From a virus (taxonomy: Duplodnaviria; Heunggongvirae; Uroviricota; Caudoviricetes; Peduoviridae): a stretch of 34,558 bases of DNA. Below the pieces are notes generated by a model. It searched no databases. It saw only the letters and a list, made by a program, of their open reading frames with translations, and had not been told where the DNA came from. A program made the translations under genes and the position numbers. The stretch is from the IMG/VR virus record IMGVR_UViG_2585427767_000007. One strand, given 5' to 3'. Every line of letters starts with the position of its first letter. Within the stretch, counting starts at the first letter, position 1. This document shows, piece by piece, positions 2,487-10,372 of this stretch.

Positions 2487-2711
2487 ATGCATACAGTTTC
2501 TGAAAATCAGTGCGGTAAATACGCATTACTGCTGCAACAGGCCAGAACCGAAGCACAGGCCGACGCGGCGACGCGCTTTTCTTCTCATCTTGACGCCATG
2601 ATTCGCCACATCACAAAGGCGGAGTTATCCCGCGTGGAGATAGTCGAGCTGCTCAGTCAGGAGTCGGAAAAATTTCACAATATCGGATTGTCTCGCGGGG
2701 AGGGACTTTGA
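2487..2711 (+). CDS. Hypothetical early protein (74 aa)
   Basis: ATG at 2487 preceded by GGAGAAAG Shine-Dalgarno; stop overlaps the next start (ATGA-type coupling at 2709-2713). Confidence 0.55.
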
Positions 2712-3013
2712 TGTCCTGTTCTCATTCAGTTGTATTACTGAATAACGCCTTAAAAATCGCCGTTATGGAAAATGGTGATTTGTCTCTTATTCAACTTTGT
2801 CTTGATAAAGAAAAACGCGACATCACTGAATCTGTTATCGCGATTTATCAGAATGAATTAAACCTCCTGTCTGATGTGGTCAATTTACTTGTTAAACGCG
2901 CTGTATTCCACAAGCAAATTTCCTCAGTGGATGAACTGACGAAATTAACGACAGAAATCGCCAGTTATTGCGCTGATGAATTTAAGAAGCTGAACGACAA
3001 AAGGAGCTGGTAA
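2711..3013 (+). CDS. Hypothetical early protein (100 aa)
   Basis: In-frame ATG at 2711 (the track start at 2708 is TTG). Translationally coupled to flanking genes. Confidence 0.6.
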   Translation: MSCSHSVVLLNNALKIAVMENGDLSLIQLCLDKEKRDITESVIAIYQNELNLLSDVVNLLVKRAVFHKQISSVDELTKLTTEIASYCADEFKKLNDKRSW

Positions 3014-3237
3014 TGCCGGACAACGTAGATTTTATTCAGGAACAACAGGCTGAATTACTGGAGCGCCAGATTAACGCGGCAAGGGTAAAACATTGCGGTG
3101 TTTCTGCGCTGGTTTGCGAAGAGTGTGACGCGCCAATACCTGCTGCCCGTCGTGCGGCTTATCCGTCAGCCACGCGTTGTGTTTCCTGCCAGTCAGTCTT
3201 TGAAGCAAAAAACAAGCATTACCGGAGAACGGCATGA
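3013..3237 (+). CDS. TraR/DksA-family C4 zinc-finger protein
   Basis: AAGGAG Shine-Dalgarno before ATG 3013. Protein carries CxxC...CxxC (CEECDAPI...RCVSCQ), the four-cysteine signature of TraR/DksA-type zinc fingers. Confidence 0.75.
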   Translation: MPDNVDFIQEQQAELLERQINAARVKHCGVSALVCEECDAPIPAARRAAYPSATRCVSCQSVFEAKNKHYRRTA

Positions 3238-3512
3238 GTATTCGTATTGAAATTGGCGAACGTTATGTCGTTACCAGTGACAGCTTTCAGTTTATTCTCC
3301 ACGAGAAAAAGAGAGCGGAAAGCGGTAAAAACGCCGGTCAGGAATGGCTGGCGGTGGTTGGTTATTATCCGAAATTAAGCCAGCTCGTTTCCGGCCTGAT
3401 GCATCACGATATTCTGACCGGAAGCGCAAAATCTTTTGCCGATTTAAACACGCAGGTTGAGCAGCTCAGCAAGCGTTGTTCAGAGGCGTTCTCCAGAGGA
3501 GCGTCTGAATGA
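3234..3512 (+). CDS. Hypothetical early protein (92 aa)
   Basis: ATG 3234 with GGAGAAC upstream; stop overlaps the start of the next gene. Confidence 0.6.
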   Translation: MSIRIEIGERYVVTSDSFQFILHEKKRAESGKNAGQEWLAVVGYYPKLSQLVSGLMHHDILTGSAKSFADLNTQVEQLSKRCSEAFSRGASE

Positions 3513-4516
3513 TTACTGATGCTCGTTGCCATACTGAAAATACCATCAATGTTATTTTTGTTTCAGGTGGAAAGGACAGCCTTGCTCAGTGGCTTGTCGC
3601 TATTGAAGAAAATGTACCCATATTGCCGGTTTTTGCTGATACGGGACATGAACATCCACAGACAATGAAATATCTGGATTATCTGGAAAAACGGCTTGGC
3701 CCAATTAAAAGGGTCAGGGCTGATTTTTCCTGCCGGATTGAATCAAAGCGCAAGTTTATCCAGACCAAATGGCCTGATTTGTTGGTTAACGATTGTGGAA
3801 TGTCGGAAGAAGAAGCGCACCAGCGCATCAGTTGTGCGCTGGAAATTCTCAAACCAACGGGTATCCCGTTTCTTGATTTGTGTCTGTGGAAGGGGCGTTT
3901 CCCATCAACCAAAGCCAGATTTTGCACATTTGAACTGAAACATGAACCCGTGCGTTCTCAGGTAATCCTGCCTTTACTCAATGAATTTGAGGAAGTGATT
4001 AGCTGGCAGGGAGTGCGTGCTCAGGAATCGCCATCACGCGCAGCTTTACCTGTCTGGGAAGAGGATGCAGACAACACCCCCGGATTGCATGTATATCGCC
4101 CGATTTTGCACTGGAAGCATGAAGATGTATTTGCAATAGCCAGAAGACATGACATTAAGCCAAATCCGTTATATCTGCAGGGGTGTGGCCGTGTTGGTTG
4201 TATGCCATGTATTCATGTCCGTAAATCTGAACTGGCAGAAATTTTTCGCCGGTGGCCGGAGGAAATAAAGCGGGTTGCTGAATGGGAACGACTGGTTGCG
4301 TCGTGCTCCCGTCGGGGAAATTCCACTTTTTTCCCATCCACACATGATCCGTTACGCGCAGAACGTCGTATTGAGGTTGTAACAGTCGAGGCATACGGAA
4401 TTGAAACCTACCATGACTGGACAATGACAACGCGTGGGGGTACTCAGTTTGATTTACTGGCTTCGGCGAATGATAAAGCCGTTTGCAGTAGTGTCTATGC
4501 CGGTGTATGTGAATGA
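3509..4516 (+). CDS. PAPS-reductase-like PP-loop protein (phosphoadenosine phosphosulfate reductase family)
   Basis: N-terminal VIFVSGGKDS PP-loop (SGGxDS) motif and C-terminal cysteine cluster (GCGRVGCMPC). Translationally coupled to the downstream gpA gene (ATGA overlap at 4513-4516). Confidence 0.75.
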   Translation: MITDARCHTENTINVIFVSGGKDSLAQWLVAIEENVPILPVFADTGHEHPQTMKYLDYLEKRLGPIKRVRADFSCRIESKRKFIQTKWPDLLVNDCGMSEEEAHQRISCALEILKPTGIPFLDLCLWKGRFPSTKARFCTFELKHEPVRSQVILPLLNEFEEVISWQGVRAQESPSRAALPVWEEDADNTPGLHVYRPILHWKHEDVFAIARRHDIKPNPLYLQGCGRVGCMPCIHVRKSELAEIFRRWPEEIKRVAEWERLVASCSRRGNSTFFPSTHDPLRAERRIEVVTVEAYGIETYHDWTMTTRGGTQFDLLASANDKAVCSSVYAGVCE

Positions 4517-6804
4517 GTCATTCTTTCCAGGAGCAATACACCTGCGTACCTCCGTCTGCGTTTGCCGCAGGCACCGGTAAGGCGTTTACCGGTGCTTATG
4601 CATGGAATACGCCACGCGAGGCTGTCGGGCGCGAAAGACCCCTTACACGTGACGAGATGCGTCAGGTGCAAGGTGTTTTATCCACGATTAACCGCCTGCC
4701 TTACTTTTTGCGCTCGCTGTTTACTTCACGTTATGACTACATACGGCGCAATAAAAGCCCGCTACACGGGTTTTATTTCCTCACATCCACTTTTCAGCGT
4801 CGTTTATGGCCGCGCATTGAGCGTGTGAATCAGCGCCATGAAATGAACACCGACGCGTCGTTACTGTTTCTGGCAGAGCGTGACCACTATGCGCGCCTGC
4901 CGGGAATGAATGACAAGGAGCTGAAAAAGTTTGCTGCCCGTATCTCATCGCAGCTTTTCATGATGTATGAGGAACTCAGCGATGCCTGGGTGGATGCGCA
5001 TGGCGAAAAAGAATCGCTGTTTACGGATGAGGCGCAGGCTCACCTCTATGGTCATGTTGCTGGCGCTGCACGTGCTTTCAATGTTTCCCCTCTCTACTGG
5101 AAAAAATACCGTAAAGGGCAGATGACCACGAGGCAGGCATATTCTGCCATTGCCCGTCTGTTTAACGATGAGTGGTGGATTAGTCAGCTTAAAGGCCAGC
5201 GTATGCGCTGGCATGAGGCGTTACTGATTGCTGTCGGGGAGGTCAATAAAGACCGTTCTCCTTATGCCAGTAAACATGCCATTCGTGATGTGCGTGCACG
5301 CCGCCAGGCAAATCTGGAGTTTCTTAAATCGTGTGACCTTGAAAACAGGGAAACCGGCGAGCGCATCGACCTTATCAGTAAGGTGATGGGCAGTATTTCT
5401 AATCCTGAAATTCGCCGGATGGAGCTGATGAACACCATTGCCGGTATTGAGCGTTACGCTGCAGCAGAGGGTGATGTGGGGATGTTTATCACGCTGACCG
5501 CGCCGTCAAAGTATCACCCGACACGTCAGGTCGGAAAAGGCGAAAGTAAAACCGTCCAGCTAAATCACGGCTGGAACGATGAGGCATTTAATCCAAAGGA
5601 TGCGCAGCGTTATCTCTGCCGTATCTGGAGCCTGATGCGCACGGCATTCAAGGATAATGATTTACAGGTCTACGGTTTGCGTGTCGTCGAGCCACACCAC
5701 GACGGAACGCCGCACTGGCATATGATGCTTTTTTGTAATCCGCGCCAGCGTAACCAGATTATTGAAATCATGCGTCGCTATGCGCTCAAAGAGGATGGCG
5801 ACGAAAGAGGAGCCGCGCGAAACCGTTTTCAGGCAAAACACCTTAACCGGGGCGGTGCTGCGGGGTATATCGCGAAATACATCTCAAAAAACATCGACGG
5901 CTATGCACTGGATGGTCAGCTCGATAACGATACCGGCAGACCTCTGAAAGATACTGCCGCGGCTGTTACTGCATGGGCGTCAACGTGGCGCATCCCGCAA
6001 TTTAAAACGGTTGGTCTGCCGACAATGGGGGCTTACCGTGAACTACGCAAATTGCCGCGCGGCGTCAGCATTGCTGATGAGTTTGACGAGCGCGTCGAGG
6101 CTGCACGCGCCGCCGCAGACAGTGGTGATTTTGCGTTGTATATCAGCGCGCAGGGTGGGGCAAATGTCCCGCGCGATTGTCAGACTGTCAGGGTTGCCCG
6201 TAGCCCGTCGGATGAAGTTAACGAGTACGAGGAAGAAGTCGAGAGAGTGGTCGGCATTTACGCGCCGCATCTCGGCGCGCGTCATATTCATATCACCAGA
6301 ACGACGGACTGGCGCATTGTTCCGAAAGTTCCGGTCGTTGAGCCTTTGACTTTAAAAAGCGGCATCGCCGCGCCTCGGAGTCCTGTCAATAACTGTGGAA
6401 AACTCACCGGTGGTGATACTTCGTTACCGGCTCCCACACCTTCAGAGCACGCCGCAGCAGTGCTTAATCTGGTTGATGACGGTGTTATCGAATGGAATGA
6501 CCAGGAGGTCGTGAAGGCGCTAAGGGGCGCATTAAAACACGGACTGAGAACACCAAATCGTCAGCAAAGAGCCGGAAGCCCGTTAAAACCGCATGAAATA
6601 GCGCCATCGGCCAGAATGACCCGGTCGGAACGAATGCAAATTACCCGTATCCGCGTTGACCTTGCTCAGAACGGTATCAGGCCGCAGCGATGGGTGCTTG
6701 AGGCGCTGGCGCGTGGCGCGACCGTAAATTATGACGGGAAAAAATTCACGTATCCGGTCGCTGATGAGTGGCCGGGATTCTCAACAGTAATGGAGTGGAA
6801 ATGA
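4513..6804 (+). CDS. A: Rolling-circle replication initiation endonuclease gpA
   Basis: 763-aa ORF. HUH motif (PHWHMMLF) and downstream tyrosine pair region (YIAKYISKNIDGY) characteristic of P2 gpA-type relaxase/initiators. Size close to remembered P2 gpA. Confidence 0.9.
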   Translation: MSHSFQEQYTCVPPSAFAAGTGKAFTGAYAWNTPREAVGRERPLTRDEMRQVQGVLSTINRLPYFLRSLFTSRYDYIRRNKSPLHGFYFLTSTFQRRLWPRIERVNQRHEMNTDASLLFLAERDHYARLPGMNDKELKKFAARISSQLFMMYEELSDAWVDAHGEKESLFTDEAQAHLYGHVAGAARAFNVSPLYWKKYRKGQMTTRQAYSAIARLFNDEWWISQLKGQRMRWHEALLIAVGEVNKDRSPYASKHAIRDVRARRQANLEFLKSCDLENRETGERIDLISKVMGSISNPEIRRMELMNTIAGIERYAAAEGDVGMFITLTAPSKYHPTRQVGKGESKTVQLNHGWNDEAFNPKDAQRYLCRIWSLMRTAFKDNDLQVYGLRVVEPHHDGTPHWHMMLFCNPRQRNQIIEIMRRYALKEDGDERGAARNRFQAKHLNRGGAAGYIAKYISKNIDGYALDGQLDNDTGRPLKDTAAAVTAWASTWRIPQFKTVGLPTMGAYRELRKLPRGVSIADEFDERVEAARAAADSGDFALYISAQGGANVPRDCQTVRVARSPSDEVNEYEEEVERVVGIYAPHLGARHIHITRTTDWRIVPKVPVVEPLTLKSGIAAPRSPVNNCGKLTGGDTSLPAPTPSEHAAAVLNLVDDGVIEWNDQEVVKALRGALKHGLRTPNRQQRAGSPLKPHEIAPSARMTRSERMQITRIRVDLAQNGIRPQRWVLEALARGATVNYDGKKFTYPVADEWPGFSTVMEWK

Positions 6805-7043
6805 TGGCAAAAATTCACGAGGTAAAGCTGCACGCAAAATATTTCGACCTTGTGCTGGAAGGAAAGAAACGTGCGGAGTTTCGGAAAAATGACCGTAATT
6901 ATGAGTACGGAGACACGTTGATTTTGCATGAATGGGTTCAGGATGTGTATACGGGGCGAAAGGTTGAAGCCCGGATAACGGATGTTACGGACCTGTCAGA
7001 CTGGCTGGAGGATTATGTTTTGTTAAGTATTCAAGTGTGTTGA
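6801..7043 (+). CDS. Small ASCH/DUF3850-like protein (80 aa)
   Basis: ATG 6801 overlaps the gpA stop, with GGAG 5 nt upstream. Sequence (KIHEVKLHAKYFDLVLEGKKRAEFRKNDRNYEYGDTLILHEW) resembles the small beta-barrel ASCH-like family often found after gpA; family assignment is from memory. Confidence 0.55.
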   Translation: MMAKIHEVKLHAKYFDLVLEGKKRAEFRKNDRNYEYGDTLILHEWVQDVYTGRKVEARITDVTDLSDWLEDYVLLSIQVC

Positions 7044-7329
7044 AAATGTATGCGGTATGTATGGAAAACCGCACCATAACGAGAAAAATATCCAGTATGA
7101 ATCTGCTTAGATTAATAGATCGCAGAAGAGAGAAGAGGTATTGAGCCATGATGCCAATTTGTGAGATACCGAAGTGTTATGACAAAGATGCTTTTAATGT
7201 TACATTCCGTCATTACTCTTATTAATCATCTATTTCAATAGATTAGGATTAATCTGGCTATGTCATTGAAGATGCTCGATGTCTCGATATTTCTTAGCTA
7301 AAATAGGAGGCACTAAGGGAGAGGATGTT

Positions 7330-8388
7330 ATGTCTAAAATTTATGCTATTGACCTTTTTTGTGGTGCAGGTGGATTAACCCATGGTTTGATACAAGCAGG
7401 GATTGGTGTCATTGCTGGTATTGATTTAGATCCAGATTGCAGATGGGCGTATGAGCACAACAACAAAGCTAAATATATAAATTCAGATATTTGTGATGTA
7501 ACAGGTCAAGACCTTATGCGCTTGTGGCCAGAACAGGGAATAAGACTTCTTGCTGGTTGCGCCCCATGTCAGCCTTTTTCAAGTTATCGAAAAGGCAAGA
7601 TTGAATCTGCTGACGGCAAATGGAAACTCTTAGGTGAATTTGGACGGCTAGTCAAAGAATCTTCACCAGACTTGATAACCATGGAAAACGTACCAAGGTT
7701 ACAAAAGCATAAAATTTTCTTGGATTTTGTTAAAGACCTTAAGAAAGGTGGGTATAAGGTCTGGTATGGCGTCGTTGACTGTCAACAATATGGTGTGCCT
7801 CAGAAAAGGCAGCGATTAGTTTTACTGGCATCCAAGATCAGTGATGTTGTGTTGATTCCTCCAACACATTCAGAAGATAACTACGTAACAGTGAAAGATG
7901 CTATTTCTCATTTGCCAGAGATAGATTCAGGGCAAGCTGATGAGAAAGATCCATTACACGTTGCTCAGGGAATGAGCCAATTAAATCTCGAAAGGATTCG
8001 TCAATCAAAACCAGGTGGAACATGGAAGGATTGGGATCCTGAGTTGGTTGCTGCGTGCCATAAGAAAAGTAGTGGCAAAACTTACACAAGTGTATATGGA
8101 CGGATGAGATGGGATGAACCAGCTCCTACAATGACAACCCTATGTTTTGGTTTTGGTAATGGACGTTTTGGGCATCCTCAACAGGATAGGGCCATTTCTT
8201 TACGTGAGGCAGCTATCTTTCAAAGTTTTCCGGAGAACTATGTTTTTTCTGAACCAGGTGCAAAGATCACATTTGCAACAGTTGGTCGCTTGATTGGTAA
8301 TGCCGTTCCGGTAAAACTAGGTGAAGTTGTAGGAAAATCATTTATTAATAGTCTATCTGGGGGTAGTAGGAGAAATGGCGGAGCATAG
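7330..8388 (+). CDS. DNA (cytosine-5)-methyltransferase, Dcm-type
   Basis: Canonical C5-MTase motifs in canonical order: motif I FCGAGG (IDLFCGAGGLTHGL), motif IV PCQPFS (catalytic Cys), motif VI ENV, motif VIII QKRQR, motif X GNAV. ATG 7330 with GGGAGAGG Shine-Dalgarno; the track start at 7279 is a longer upstream extension. Lower GC than the phage backbone. Confidence 0.9.
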   Translation: MSKIYAIDLFCGAGGLTHGLIQAGIGVIAGIDLDPDCRWAYEHNNKAKYINSDICDVTGQDLMRLWPEQGIRLLAGCAPCQPFSSYRKGKIESADGKWKLLGEFGRLVKESSPDLITMENVPRLQKHKIFLDFVKDLKKGGYKVWYGVVDCQQYGVPQKRQRLVLLASKISDVVLIPPTHSEDNYVTVKDAISHLPEIDSGQADEKDPLHVAQGMSQLNLERIRQSKPGGTWKDWDPELVAACHKKSSGKTYTSVYGRMRWDEPAPTMTTLCFGFGNGRFGHPQQDRAISLREAAIFQSFPENYVFSEPGAKITFATVGRLIGNAVPVKLGEVVGKSFINSLSGGSRRNGGA

Positions 8389-10372
8389 CGAAGTTTTATC
8401 GCATGTTGATGAAAAAACACATACTTATGAGATGCTGGTTAGCTTGAGTGTTCTGGGGCATCTGGGGATCAATCTATATAGCAATGTTGCGGCAGTGATT
8501 ACGGAAACAGTAGCTAATGCATGGGATGCAGATGCTACAGAAGTGCATATAAAACTTTCTCCTGACAGAATCACTATTTCGGATAATGGTTTTGGAATGA
8601 CCATTCATGATATGAATTCGAAATATCTAACAGTTGGCTATCAAAAAAGAAATGATAAAAGCCAGCTATTAACTCCCAAGGGACGACTACCCATGGGCAG
8701 AAAAGGTATTGGTAAGTTATCTTTATTTTCTATTGCAAAAACTGTAACGGTTGAATCAATCAAGGATGGAGAACGACATGGTTTAGTTATGGAAGTTCCA
8801 AAAATAGAGCATGCAATCAAAAGTGGGGCTGGTAGATATTATCCAGAACCTTTGGATTCTGCTCAACTTTCTGTGAGTCAAGGAACATTAGTAACATTGC
8901 GTGATCTAAATCGATCTCGCATACCTGCCACTGCAACCGCTTTGCGTAAAAAGTTAGCAAGGCGTTTTTCTGTTATTGGTAGTAATGATTTTAGGGTCTT
9001 CGTTGATGGTGTAGAAGTAACAGCAAAGGAACGTGAGGACCTAAAACATGTTCAGTTCGTATGGGATATTAACTCGGGGGTAGATTTTAAAAAAGAATGT
9101 CCGGGGTTAATAACTGTAACTGACATTTCATCATTTTTGACAGAAAGTCAATTATTTAATCCTGAATGGAGCATTAAAGGGTGGATTGGTAGTATAAAAC
9201 AGCCTAGTCAGTTGAATACACCTGAAGGAAATCTAAATAGCATTGTTGTTTTATCTAGAGGTCGATTGTTTCAAGAGAACATTTTAGATGATATAAACGA
9301 TGGTGGGATATACACAAAGTATCTTACAGGGCAACTTGAGGCAGACTTCCTTGATACAGATGAAGATGAAGATATTGCAACAAGTGATAGACAACGAGTT
9401 GTTGAAGATGACCCTCGTTATCAATATTTGAAATCATTGGTTAAGATTGCCCTGAGAAAGGTTGCTGGTCAATGGAGCTCACTACGAGAAAAGCAAGGAG
9501 CAAAGGAAGCTAAAGAATCGAATCCGGTACTTGCGGAGTGGATCGGTTCATTAAAACCTGCTTCCCGAGGCTATGCAGAAAAAATGATCGCTCAAATTGA
9601 ATCGTTGCCTTTGGAGGATAAACCACAAGAGAAGAAGGAACTCTTTAAGCATGCAATTTTTGCATTTGAGCGCTTGCGTATTAAGGAAATGTCGCAGGAG
9701 CTAGCTGATGCTGTATTTTTTAATGCAGAAAAATTATTGCCATTGCTTGAGAAACAAGACGATTTAGAGGCAACATTATATTATGAGATAGCTAAGAGTC
9801 GTGTAGATGTTATTCAAAGCTTCAAAGGCCTAGTCGATAACGATGAAAAAGAAAAAGTATTGCAACGTTATCTTTTTGAACACCTTTGGTTATTAGACCC
9901 ATCATGGGAAAGAATTGATGGTTCTCCAATAATGGAGTCGCGTGTTAACCAAGAGTGGGACAAGATTGATGCTGGCCTGAGTGAAGAAGAGAAGAAAGGT
10001 CGTATGGATATAAAATATCGCTCATCTGCAGGTAAGCATATTATCATTGAACTTAAGAGAGCTAGCGTATTGACTTCTGTTGCAAATCTAGTCAGTCAGG
10101 GGAATAAGTACAGGCAGGCAGTAATTAAGTGTGCAAAAGCTGTTGACCCGGCCTCAACACCATCAATTGATGTGATTTTTGTCCTTGGTCGAGAGCCATC
10201 AGATTATGCGTTAGACCCATCTTATACTAACCTTCAGCTACAGTCAGTGAATGGTCGGATTGTTTATTATGATGGGCTAATTAATAGCGCACAGAGCTCG
10301 TATAGAGAATATACAGAGAGGCAGGCTACTGTTGCAAGGATTGCTGAAATCGTTAAAAAACTAGATGACTAG
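8375..10372 (+). CDS. GHKL/HATPase_c-type ATPase (665 aa) with C-terminal PD-(D/E)xK-like nuclease motif; candidate restriction/defence effector
   Basis: Bergerat-fold motifs near the N-terminus: N-box ETVANAWDA (ExxxNAxDA), G1 box DNGFGM, G2 box GRKGIGKLS. C-terminal region has D...ExK pattern (GRMDIKY...HIIIELKR). ATG 8375 overlaps the MTase stop by 14 nt with AGGAG upstream. Low GC. Confidence 0.8.
   Translation: MAEHSEVLSHVDEKTHTYEMLVSLSVLGHLGINLYSNVAAVITETVANAWDADATEVHIKLSPDRITISDNGFGMTIHDMNSKYLTVGYQKRNDKSQLLTPKGRLPMGRKGIGKLSLFSIAKTVTVESIKDGERHGLVMEVPKIEHAIKSGAGRYYPEPLDSAQLSVSQGTLVTLRDLNRSRIPATATALRKKLARRFSVIGSNDFRVFVDGVEVTAKEREDLKHVQFVWDINSGVDFKKECPGLITVTDISSFLTESQLFNPEWSIKGWIGSIKQPSQLNTPEGNLNSIVVLSRGRLFQENILDDINDGGIYTKYLTGQLEADFLDTDEDEDIATSDRQRVVEDDPRYQYLKSLVKIALRKVAGQWSSLREKQGAKEAKESNPVLAEWIGSLKPASRGYAEKMIAQIESLPLEDKPQEKKELFKHAIFAFERLRIKEMSQELADAVFFNAEKLLPLLEKQDDLEATLYYEIAKSRVDVIQSFKGLVDNDEKEKVLQRYLFEHLWLLDPSWERIDGSPIMESRVNQEWDKIDAGLSEEEKKGRMDIKYRSSAGKHIIIELKRASVLTSVANLVSQGNKYRQAVIKCAKAVDPASTPSIDVIFVLGREPSDYALDPSYTNLQLQSVNGRIVYYDGLINSAQSSYREYTERQATVARIAEIVKKLDD

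Follow-up and report, generated by a model that had tools for sequence, protein, structure and literature searches.

A phage 186 Orf84-type PP-loop enzyme in the early operon of a P2-like Escherichia coli prophage, with a most likely role in the protection of phage DNA

IMG/VR virus record IMGVR_UViG_2585427767_000007 (Peduoviridae), a stretch of 34,558 nucleotides that is called the window here, is a P2-like Escherichia coli prophage whose positions 3000-7100 are 100% identical in DNA sequence to strains MZ1211 and CB209. Directly upstream of the gene for gpA it carries an open reading frame (ORF) at 3509..4516 on the + strand, which starts with ATG and encodes 335 amino acids plus a stop. 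We find that this gene, the ortholog of coliphage 186 orf84, is an accessory and non-essential member of the early operon and that, judged from its sequence, it encodes a stand-alone PP-loop adenosine triphosphate (ATP) pyrophosphatase of the phosphoadenosine phosphosulfate (PAPS) reductase superfamily. Its role is most likely the protection of phage DNA from host defenses, and the sulfur metabolism label attached to it is probably wrong. The gene is an ordinary one that annotation pipelines have already named; its value lies in a tractable question of function and in the correction of a common misannotation.

Orthology with phage 186 orf84

The encoded protein shares 76.3% amino acid identity with coliphage 186 Orf84 (NP_052288.1) over residues 2 to 335, and a tblastn search of phage genomes returned Yersinia phage P37 (81%) and coliphage 186 (76%). 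It matches the PHROG profile phrog_424 (E = 3.4e-85). The placement also agrees: in 186, orf84 is preceded by a DUF5405 gene and followed by gene A, whose start overlaps it in the same ATGA junction. The final 18 nucleotides of the ORF (GCCGGTGTATGTGAATGA), including this ATGA, are identical in the window and in 186. The gene directly downstream in the window encodes gpA (PF05840, Phage_GPA; E = 3e-123). The ORF and its two junctions are as follows.

3509..4516, + strand: complete Orf84-type ORF, ortholog of phage 186 Orf84, encoding a PP-loop enzyme of the PAPS_reduct superfamily
3509..3512, + strand: ATGA shared with the stop of the DUF5405 gene that precedes the ORF (3234-3512), read directly
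4513..4516, + strand: ATGA overlap between the stop of the ORF and the gpA start (gpA, 4513-6804), read directly

The gene is a member of the already known phrog_424 family, a catalogued accessory gene of P2/186-type phages that was found in 186 decades ago. A preliminary description of the window, made from the sequence alone, had not recognized this. It had been correct in placing a 335-amino-acid ORF with an SGGKDS PP-loop at 3509-4516, in proposing translational coupling to gpA (the layout of the overlap at 4513-4516 is that of 186), and in stating that canonical P2 lacks the gene; in P2 (NC_001895), Orf83 runs directly to A. The 186 record describes Orf84 as 'unknown function; not essential,' and a literature search on phage 186 orf84 found no paper.

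Relatives of the protein are numerous. A collection of 5.8 billion proteins holds 5,921 at E <= 1e-5, and a search at 50% clustering gave 2,312 representatives (312 at E <= 1e-30). The best 120 relatives are all from Enterobacterales and are named 'phosphoadenosine phosphosulfate reductase family protein,' the name that the Prokaryotic Genome Annotation Pipeline (PGAP) gives to relatives. RefSeq E. coli genomes include annotated genes that are 100% identical to that of the window. The ORF is present in 68 of 5,426 complete E. coli genomes (30 at at least 95% nucleotide identity and 38 at 72-78%), whereas some match to the window region 3000-7100 is found in 1,724 of them, indicating that the early operon carries the gene in only a minority of cases, as variable cargo. 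Among the viral loci with relatives, 20 have gpA downstream, and the slot between Orf83 and A is empty (P2), holds the PAPS-like gene alone (186 and the window), or holds Dam together with the PAPS-like gene.

In comparison with 186 orf84, the proportion of nonsynonymous differences (pN) is 0.146 and that of synonymous differences (pS) is 0.72, which is saturated, giving a ratio of nonsynonymous to synonymous rates (dN/dS) of ~0.07. The low pN and the saturated pS indicate a constrained protein-coding gene under strong purifying selection. The G+C content of the ORF is 46.8%, compared to 45.7% for the upstream early genes; because its composition matches that of its own operon, recent import as a moron of foreign composition was rejected.

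Motifs, cysteines, and predicted structure

Pfam places residues 15 to 236 in PF01507 (PAPS_reduct) with 119.1 bits against a gathering score of 22.5 (E = 2.8e-34), in agreement with the PAPS-reductase-like assignment of the preliminary description. Conservation was assessed in 58 relatives at 39-82% identity. The protein features, in coding order, are listed below.

3563..3580, + strand: PP-loop S19-G-G-K-D-S24, the ATP pyrophosphatase signature, read directly
3728..3892, + strand: helical insert, residues 74 to 128, specific to the family; the short relatives from Bacteroidota and Acinetobacter phages lack it
3899..3940, + strand: block F131-P-S...R-F-C139-T-x-E-L-K144, with C139 and K144 invariant
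4010..4039, + strand: 'Arg loop' G168-V-R170-A-Q-E173-S174-P-S-R177, common to the PAPS_reduct superfamily
4190..4210, + strand: R228-V-G-C231-M-P-C234, a CxxC equivalent to the iron-sulfur (Fe-S) ligand pair 'SIGCxPCT' of adenosine phosphosulfate (APS) reductases
4217..4483, + strand: C-terminal domain, residues 237 to 325, mostly helical, with a W304-x-x-T-x-R-G-G311 motif
4484..4513, + strand: flexible tail C326-S-S-V-Y-A-G-V-C334-E335, the end of the protein, with C334 invariant

Within the PP-loop (residues 19 to 24), G21 and S24 are invariant, and S19, G20, K22, and D23 are conserved in at least 90% of the relatives. The Arg loop, which aligns to 'GLRREQSQSRA' of CysH, has an invariant G168, with R170, E173, S174, and R177 at at least 90%. 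HMMER aligns C231xxC234 to 'GYPSIGCAPCT' of the Mycobacterium tuberculosis APS reductase and to 'GYISIGCEPCT' of the Pseudomonas aeruginosa enzyme. In the C-terminal domain W304, T307, G310, and G311 are conserved at at least 90%, as are C326, S328, G332, and E335 in the tail, which together give the signature CSSxYG(L/V)CE-COOH. Twelve cysteines are present in total, at positions 7, 75, 96, 109, 125, 139, 226, 231, 234, 266, 326, and 334. Three of them are invariant (C139, C231, and C334), and C234 and C326 reach at least 90%. Thus, the C-terminal cysteine cluster noted in the preliminary description is real with regard to C231, C234, C326, and C334, whereas C226 and C266 vary among the relatives.

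Modeling with AlphaFold2 on the basis of 58 diverse relatives gave a mean predicted local distance difference test score (pLDDT) of 92.7 and a predicted template-modeling score (pTM) of 0.90, and the predicted fold is the Rossmann-like alpha/beta one of the adenine nucleotide alpha-hydrolases, as in solved PAPS_reduct members. For the last ~25 residues the pLDDT is only 59-72, consistent with a flexible tail. In structure comparison, ~180 of the 335 residues align, and the insert at 74 to 128 and the region 237 to 335 (~150 residues) are family-specific. A sequence search of the PDB with the C-terminal half gave no significant match, and the viral fold library BFVD returned only similarly named, uncharacterized phage proteins. 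A weak PDB profile match to 'PptA' (21fy) could not be traced; a literature search on PptA in connection with phosphorothioates brought up nothing relevant.

Relation to named families of the superfamily

The hidden Markov model (HMM) and structure comparison that had been suggested in the preliminary description recovered the superfamily core, but the family cutoffs for DndC, CysH, and APS reductase were all missed. For CysH, the protein scored 65.2 bits against a cutoff of 154 (PRK02090), 44.5 against 165.1 (TIGR00434), and 37.7 against 254.2 (TIGR02057); for APS reductase, it scored 50.9 against 235.3 (TIGR02055). The alignments to these NCBIfam models begin at residues 142 to 159, and the position of SGGKDS is taken in CysH by a degenerate 'SFGIQAAV.' The catalytic cysteine of CysH is carried by a C-terminal ECGLH motif, which is absent from the Orf84-type protein (its end reads ...AVCSSVYAGVCE). 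HMMER aligns the Cys-Cys pair of APS reductases to P147/V148, so that the protein has only half of their cluster motif. Another register, in which C139 is the first cysteine of the pair (CTFELKHEP against CCxxRKVxP), was dropped; HMMER anchored the alignment on the 'PL...GxR' spacing.

The suggested likeness to DndC does not extend to membership, as the score is 21.2 bits against a cutoff of 290.4 (TIGR03183) and the gene has no Dnd or Ssp partners in its vicinity. The best PADLOC match to DndC (E = 1.2e-7) covers residues 132 to 214 only. That to SspD is stronger (74 bits; E = 3e-21) and aligns residues 127 to 282 to model positions 73 to 216 of 277; it is partial, and with no Ssp partner genes in the window the protein does not qualify as an SspD. 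A partial match to BrxP (E = 4e-12) covers model positions 212 to 336 of 779, and Pfam finds PF01507 alone on the protein, without the DUF4007 of BrxP. Alignments to DndC, SspD, and BrxP, which are all sulfurtransferases of phosphorothioation systems, begin at residues 126 to 132 and so take in the C139 block. No Dnd model matched any of the tested neighbors (DUF5405, TraR/DksA, gpA, and DUF3850), none of the partners DndA/D/E, SspA/B/C, and BrxC/Z/L was found near the window gene, and of the plasmid matches H175 and H178 neither lies within a Dnd or Ssp cluster. IbrA-type regulators combine PAPS_reduct with DUF3440 and are paired with the ParB-like IbrB. The window protein is not of this type, as Pfam finds no DUF3440 on it and no ParB-like gene stands beside its gene. 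A literature search on IbrA and IbrB brought up nothing relevant.

DndC has an SGGKDS loop, a [4Fe-4S] cluster, and ATP pyrophosphatase activity (review PMC6435447). The SGGKDS loop and conserved cysteines are also present in the Orf84-type protein; the comparison with DndC and SspD was made in HMM coordinates only. On these alignments the protein appears to form a separate PAPS_reduct clade that in its predicted chemistry resembles the adenylating, sulfur-inserting members more than CysH. A literature search on the 'CysH-like' protein of type IV-B CRISPR systems found no functional data.

Linkage to DNA methyltransferases

Eighty viral contigs with relatives were fetched, and linkage was scored in 77 viral loci using simple gene calling. 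Methyltransferases were found by an iterated HMM search from ten seed sequences, which miss some methyltransferase families, and positions 3 to 9 of the same loci served as an internal control for methyltransferase richness of the early region. Methyltransferase genes account for 13 of the 63 genes at position -1, 7/58 at -2, 4/60 at +1, and 5/58 at +2, compared with 14/601 at positions 3 to 9 on either side (odds ratio, 5.8; P = 6e-8). The IMG/VR contigs are not fully independent; with one locus per 70%-identity cluster, the odds ratio is 8.7 (P = 1.5e-5), and a methyltransferase lies within two genes in 13 of 33 lineages. The near methyltransferases comprise 14 Dam, 8 C5, and 7 N4/N6 enzymes, and many of their genes share 1 or 4 nucleotides with the PAPS-like gene. 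In P2-like loci a Dam gene (PF02086) stands directly upstream, giving the order Dam-Orf84-gpA with overlaps of 1 to 4 nucleotides.

L033:5141-9251: Dam (PF02086), Orf84 homolog, and gpA; similar arrangements in L020, L024, L035, L036, L039, and L042

A Pfam scan of 121 neighbors from 46 divergent loci likewise placed C5 and N6/N4 methylases at the top, and MT-A70, Mom, and ParB-helix-turn-helix genes were also found. The last of these flank relatives in loci L017 and L088 and at phiE125 gp58. In Burkholderia phage phiE125, the homolog has a methyltransferase on one side and a ParB-like gene on the other; in Agrobacterium phage Rivra, it is flanked by two methyltransferases, and in Serratia phage Parlo, it is near Dam and ASCH genes. 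An ASCH-domain gene is near the PAPS-like gene in Phocaeicola phage PV4-TP1, and methyltransferases are near the homolog in Stenotrophomonas phage S1 and in Porphyromonas and Phocaeicola phages. Fusions point in the same direction: the PADLOC 'MTase_II' model contains a PAPS domain, and a weak methyltransferase domain is seen at the N terminus of P0268.

Proposed function

At a probability of about 0.45, the explanation that we favor is that the Orf84-type protein is an adenylating phage enzyme using an Fe-S cluster and persulfide for DNA modification or anti-restriction, acting together with or instead of methylation. The enzyme would bind ATP and adenylate an oxygen on a nucleic acid substrate, of which phage DNA would be the likeliest, at a backbone phosphate or a base carbonyl. 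C139, C231, and C234 may be the ligands of an Fe-S cluster like those of DndC, APS reductase, and TtuA-type enzymes, and the mobile tail with C326 and C334 may carry persulfide from the host cysteine desulfurase IscS. Delivery of the sulfur by the tail would displace adenosine monophosphate (AMP), and the product would be a covalent mark that, alone or with methylation, could shield incoming or replicating phage DNA from restriction-type defenses.

In the literature we found a single experiment on a PAPS-domain gene of a phage; it concerns p0018 of Vibrio crassostreae phage 44E38.1, a fusion of a PAPS domain with Dam; when p0018 and its neighbor gene were moved into a sensitive Vibrio phage, the phage escaped host Dnd (Piel et al., bioRxiv 10.1101/2021.05.05.442762). 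A 2026 paper in Nucleic Acids Research (NAR) predicts that the PAPS reductases of Aca-controlled operons are anti-defense proteins, and a 2024 paper states that such phage proteins "deserve further investigation." The idea of DNA modification or anti-restriction, already raised in the preliminary description, is plausible and appears better supported by the adjacency to methyltransferases, by the fusions, and by the Vibrio escape from Dnd. The role at replication that the preliminary description had read from the early-operon placement is not supported, as 186 Orf84 is annotated as non-essential and the gene adjoins methyltransferases, not replication genes, in other phages.

Several points weigh against a DNA-marking enzyme. 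The 186 record offers only its brief entry on Orf84, and neither in 186 nor in the window does a methyltransferase adjoin the gene. Phosphorothioation (PT) systems require a P-loop nucleoside triphosphatase (NTPase; DndD, SspC, or BrxC) beside the PAPS-domain protein, and isolates without the pair show no PT (PMC12914056); the requirement for both proteins counts against stand-alone phosphorothioation by Orf84. No NTPase, cysteine desulfurase, or DndE/SspB gene was found near the window gene, whose neighbors are DUF5405 and gpA. The Fe-S cluster is itself only predicted; the APS-reductase pair falls opposite P147/V148 and not C139. PP-loop enzymes can also act on RNA, on proteins (Cap9), and on small molecules, and the Vibrio protein of Piel et al. 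may belong to a subfamily other than that of Orf84.

A bolder and rather unlikely form of the proposal is that the protein is a self-sufficient DNA-marking enzyme of an undescribed kind, in which one polypeptide with a housekeeping cysteine desulfurase, without an NTPase of the DndD/SspC type, would adenylate and thiolate phage DNA, on a base or in the backbone, during gpA-driven rolling-circle replication. Its mark would then cooperate with Dam, Dcm, or N4/N6 methylation against restriction, Dnd/Ssp, and bacteriophage exclusion (BREX). If this were true, 186 and the window prophage would carry an undiscovered DNA modification, and a phage 'PAPS reductase' could no longer be read as a routine auxiliary metabolic gene for sulfur. 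Both phage 186 and P2-like E. coli prophages are readily amenable to genetics.

Alternative explanations

The protein may instead counter host defenses without marking DNA, which we regard as unlikely. It would act either as a mimic of DndC/SspD, hijacking or poisoning the PT or BREX-4 machinery of the host (by borrowing DndD/E or SspB/C or by titrating IscS or DndA) or as a consumer of a cofactor or signal through its ATP pyrophosphatase chemistry. The top matches in the defense library are SspD, BrxP, and DndC, the gene brings no NTPase partner of its own, and the Vibrio phage PAPS-domain protein defeated Dnd specifically. Family members also occur in variable regions rich in anti-defense genes and in Aca-controlled operons, and a distant relative lies near repA and mobI of IncC conjugative plasmids. 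However, a family of this breadth (5,921 relatives; 2,312 representatives at 50% identity) is very widespread for such a role, and to our knowledge, Dnd, Ssp, and BREX-4 are present in only a minority of Orf84-family hosts. Furthermore, a pure binder needs neither invariant catalytic residues in a PP-loop nor five conserved cysteines, and the tight coupling to several unrelated classes of methyltransferase points to an action on DNA.

A target other than DNA is also unlikely. The enzyme would then be a transfer RNA (tRNA) or ribosomal RNA thiolase (like TtcA, TtuA, or ThiI) that retunes translation during lytic growth, or it would join a small molecule to a protein as Cap9- and QueC-like enzymes do. 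Three cysteines with a PP-loop do resemble the [4Fe-4S] tRNA thiolases, and the gene stands alone in 186 and in the window prophage. However, Pfam detects no THUMP, PUA, or TtuA zinc finger, and the HMM libraries place the protein nearer to SspD, DndC, and BrxP than to the tRNA thiolases. The neighbors among the relatives (DNA methyltransferases, ParB-like proteins, and Mom) are also DNA directed.

Older and current phage and virome papers describe phage PAPS reductases as sulfur assimilation morons or auxiliary metabolic genes, and virome studies up to 2026 count them as such, with ecological and health conclusions. Applied to the window gene, this would mean a genuine assimilatory (P)APS reductase that raises sulfate reduction and the cysteine supply of the host, which we consider very unlikely. 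In its favor are the name and the fold, with CysH and APS reductases as the best structural matches, together with the shared Arg loop and DTG motif, a CxxC like that of APS reductases, a cysteine near the C terminus reminiscent of the ECGLH nucleophile, and its being assumed in many phage genome and virome papers. Nevertheless, the ATP-type loop, the missed CysH and APS cutoffs, the cysteine tail, and the methyltransferase linkage all argue against it. All of the curated alignments start only at residue ~142-159, a canonical SGGKDS stands where sulfonucleotide reductases have a degenerate loop, the tail reads CSSxYG(L/V)CE with no ECG[LI]H, and ~150 of 335 residues are specific to the family. 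Its partners are DNA methyltransferases and ParB-like genes and not genes of the sulfur pathway, E. coli already has cysH, and the position in a lytic early operon is not that of a lysogenic conversion gene.

Coupling to gpA

The 186 record states that 'translation to end of orf84 appears necessary for translation of A protein,' and an annotated terminator, tM1, lies 85-112 nucleotides into its A gene. In the window we found a hairpin at 4570-4596 (+), inside the 5' end of gpA and ~60-85 nucleotides into the gene, with a 9-bp perfect stem (CACCGGTAA/TTACCGGTG) and a stability of -21.5 kcal/mol (z = -3.0). It is as stable as tM1, and the two sequences do not align. A terminator scan at the start of gpA found no canonical intrinsic terminator, only the hairpin without a T-run. 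Because a stable hairpin lies early in the A gene of both phages, translation from the upstream ORF is suggested to guard gpA expression in each of them. The only cis role in the window prophage would be that ribosomes ending the Orf84-type ORF reinitiate on gpA.

That the ORF is purely a cis leader, delivering ribosomes to gpA and preventing premature termination with any enzyme activity dispensable, would suit the 186 annotation, which ties translation of A to the end of orf84 with tM1 just inside A, and would suit the conserved junction and tM1-like hairpin, but it is hardly credible given that P2 couples Orf83 directly to A without the gene, that selection is strongly purifying and the catalytic motifs invariant, and that the family is kept in phages and plasmids without gpA.

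Neighboring genes and other relatives

Upstream of the ORF, DUF5405 paralogs flank a TraR/DksA zinc-finger gene (2708-3013, 3013-3237, and 3234-3512, all +), with start/stop overlaps throughout; the same trio is found in P2 as Orf81-Orf83. A DUF3850/ASCH protein homologous to P2 Orf91 is encoded at 6768-7043 (+), with its start inside the 3' end of gpA. It is followed by a C5 cytosine methyltransferase gene at 7279-8388 (+; PF00145, E = 1e-55) and, overlapping that, by a gene for a 665-amino-acid GHKL-ATPase protein at 8375-10372 (+; PADLOC 'REase_II,' E = 1e-94). Together (7279-10372, +) these two look like a restriction-modification pair. They sit between gpA/Orf91 and the portal gene, where P2 has tin and old. 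The C5 methyltransferase of this tin/old-hotspot pair is probably unrelated to the Orf84-type gene.

Orf4 of Escherichia phage phi458 (L091:3420-4664), a 414-amino-acid protein of a lambdoid phage, is annotated as 'putative transcriptional regulator.' With SAGKDS, all of the conserved cysteines, and CSSRYGLCE at its end, it is a full member of the Orf84 family, and the regulator annotation looks wrong. Its gene adjoins an S-adenosylmethionine (SAM) methyltransferase on the opposite strand. In Acidovorax phage Alfacinha3, the P2-family homolog gp49 has an N-terminal extension of ~95 amino acids (gp49 N terminus, L007:3716-4015). An ASCH fusion in this protein was rejected as too weak (10 of 23 residues identical to the start of the window DUF3850 protein; E = 6e-5; no Pfam match).

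Relatives were also found on 1,461 plasmids, of which 1,106 are conjugative. A distant one (~26% identity) on the IncC plasmid pNDM10505 (L093:5494-6609), ~1.5 kb from repA and near mobI, has SGGKDS, the cysteine of the C139 block, and the CxxC, without the GLCE end. This protein may be a plasmid counterpart of the phage Orf84 gene.

Comparison with known systems

With Vibrio p0018, the Orf84-type gene has in common the link of a phage PAPS domain to Dam, for which the overlapping upstream Dam of many P2-like relatives may be compared. It differs in that the Vibrio protein is a fusion with a PAPS domain ending at ~residue 175 and in that the phenotype there came from two genes jointly. CysH and APS reductases have the same DTG motif, Arg loop, and cysteine on a flexible C-terminal tail, and RVGCxPC resembles SIGCxPCT of APS reductases. 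In contrast to them, the Orf84 type has an ATP-type loop and ~150 extra residues and lacks the aligned Cys-Cys pair, ECGLH, and a sulfur pathway context.

The outline of the [4Fe-4S]-dependent PP-loop thiolases TtuA, TtcA, and NcsA and of the persulfide-relay thiolases ThiI and MnmA is similar, with PP-loop adenylation and three possible cluster cysteines that would leave one free iron. By analogy to ThiI and MnmA, the Orf84 cysteine pair could act as persulfide carrier and resolver. However, the Orf84 type belongs to another family of the superfamily, without RNA-binding modules and in a DNA-directed context. DndC, SspD, and BrxP share with it the PF01507 core, the SGGKDS adenylation loop, conserved cysteines compatible with an Fe-S cluster, and the FPS..RFC139T..LK144 block, whereas the helical insert, the C-terminal domain, and the CSSxYGLCE tail are peculiar to the Orf84 type, which is encoded by phages, beside methyltransferases.

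The window phage differs from 186 in having a gpA of P2 type, not 186 type, and in carrying the restriction-modification pair as tin/old-hotspot cargo. The window gene and 186 orf84 themselves agree in full-length similarity, place, junction, and motifs, and nothing essential differs between them.

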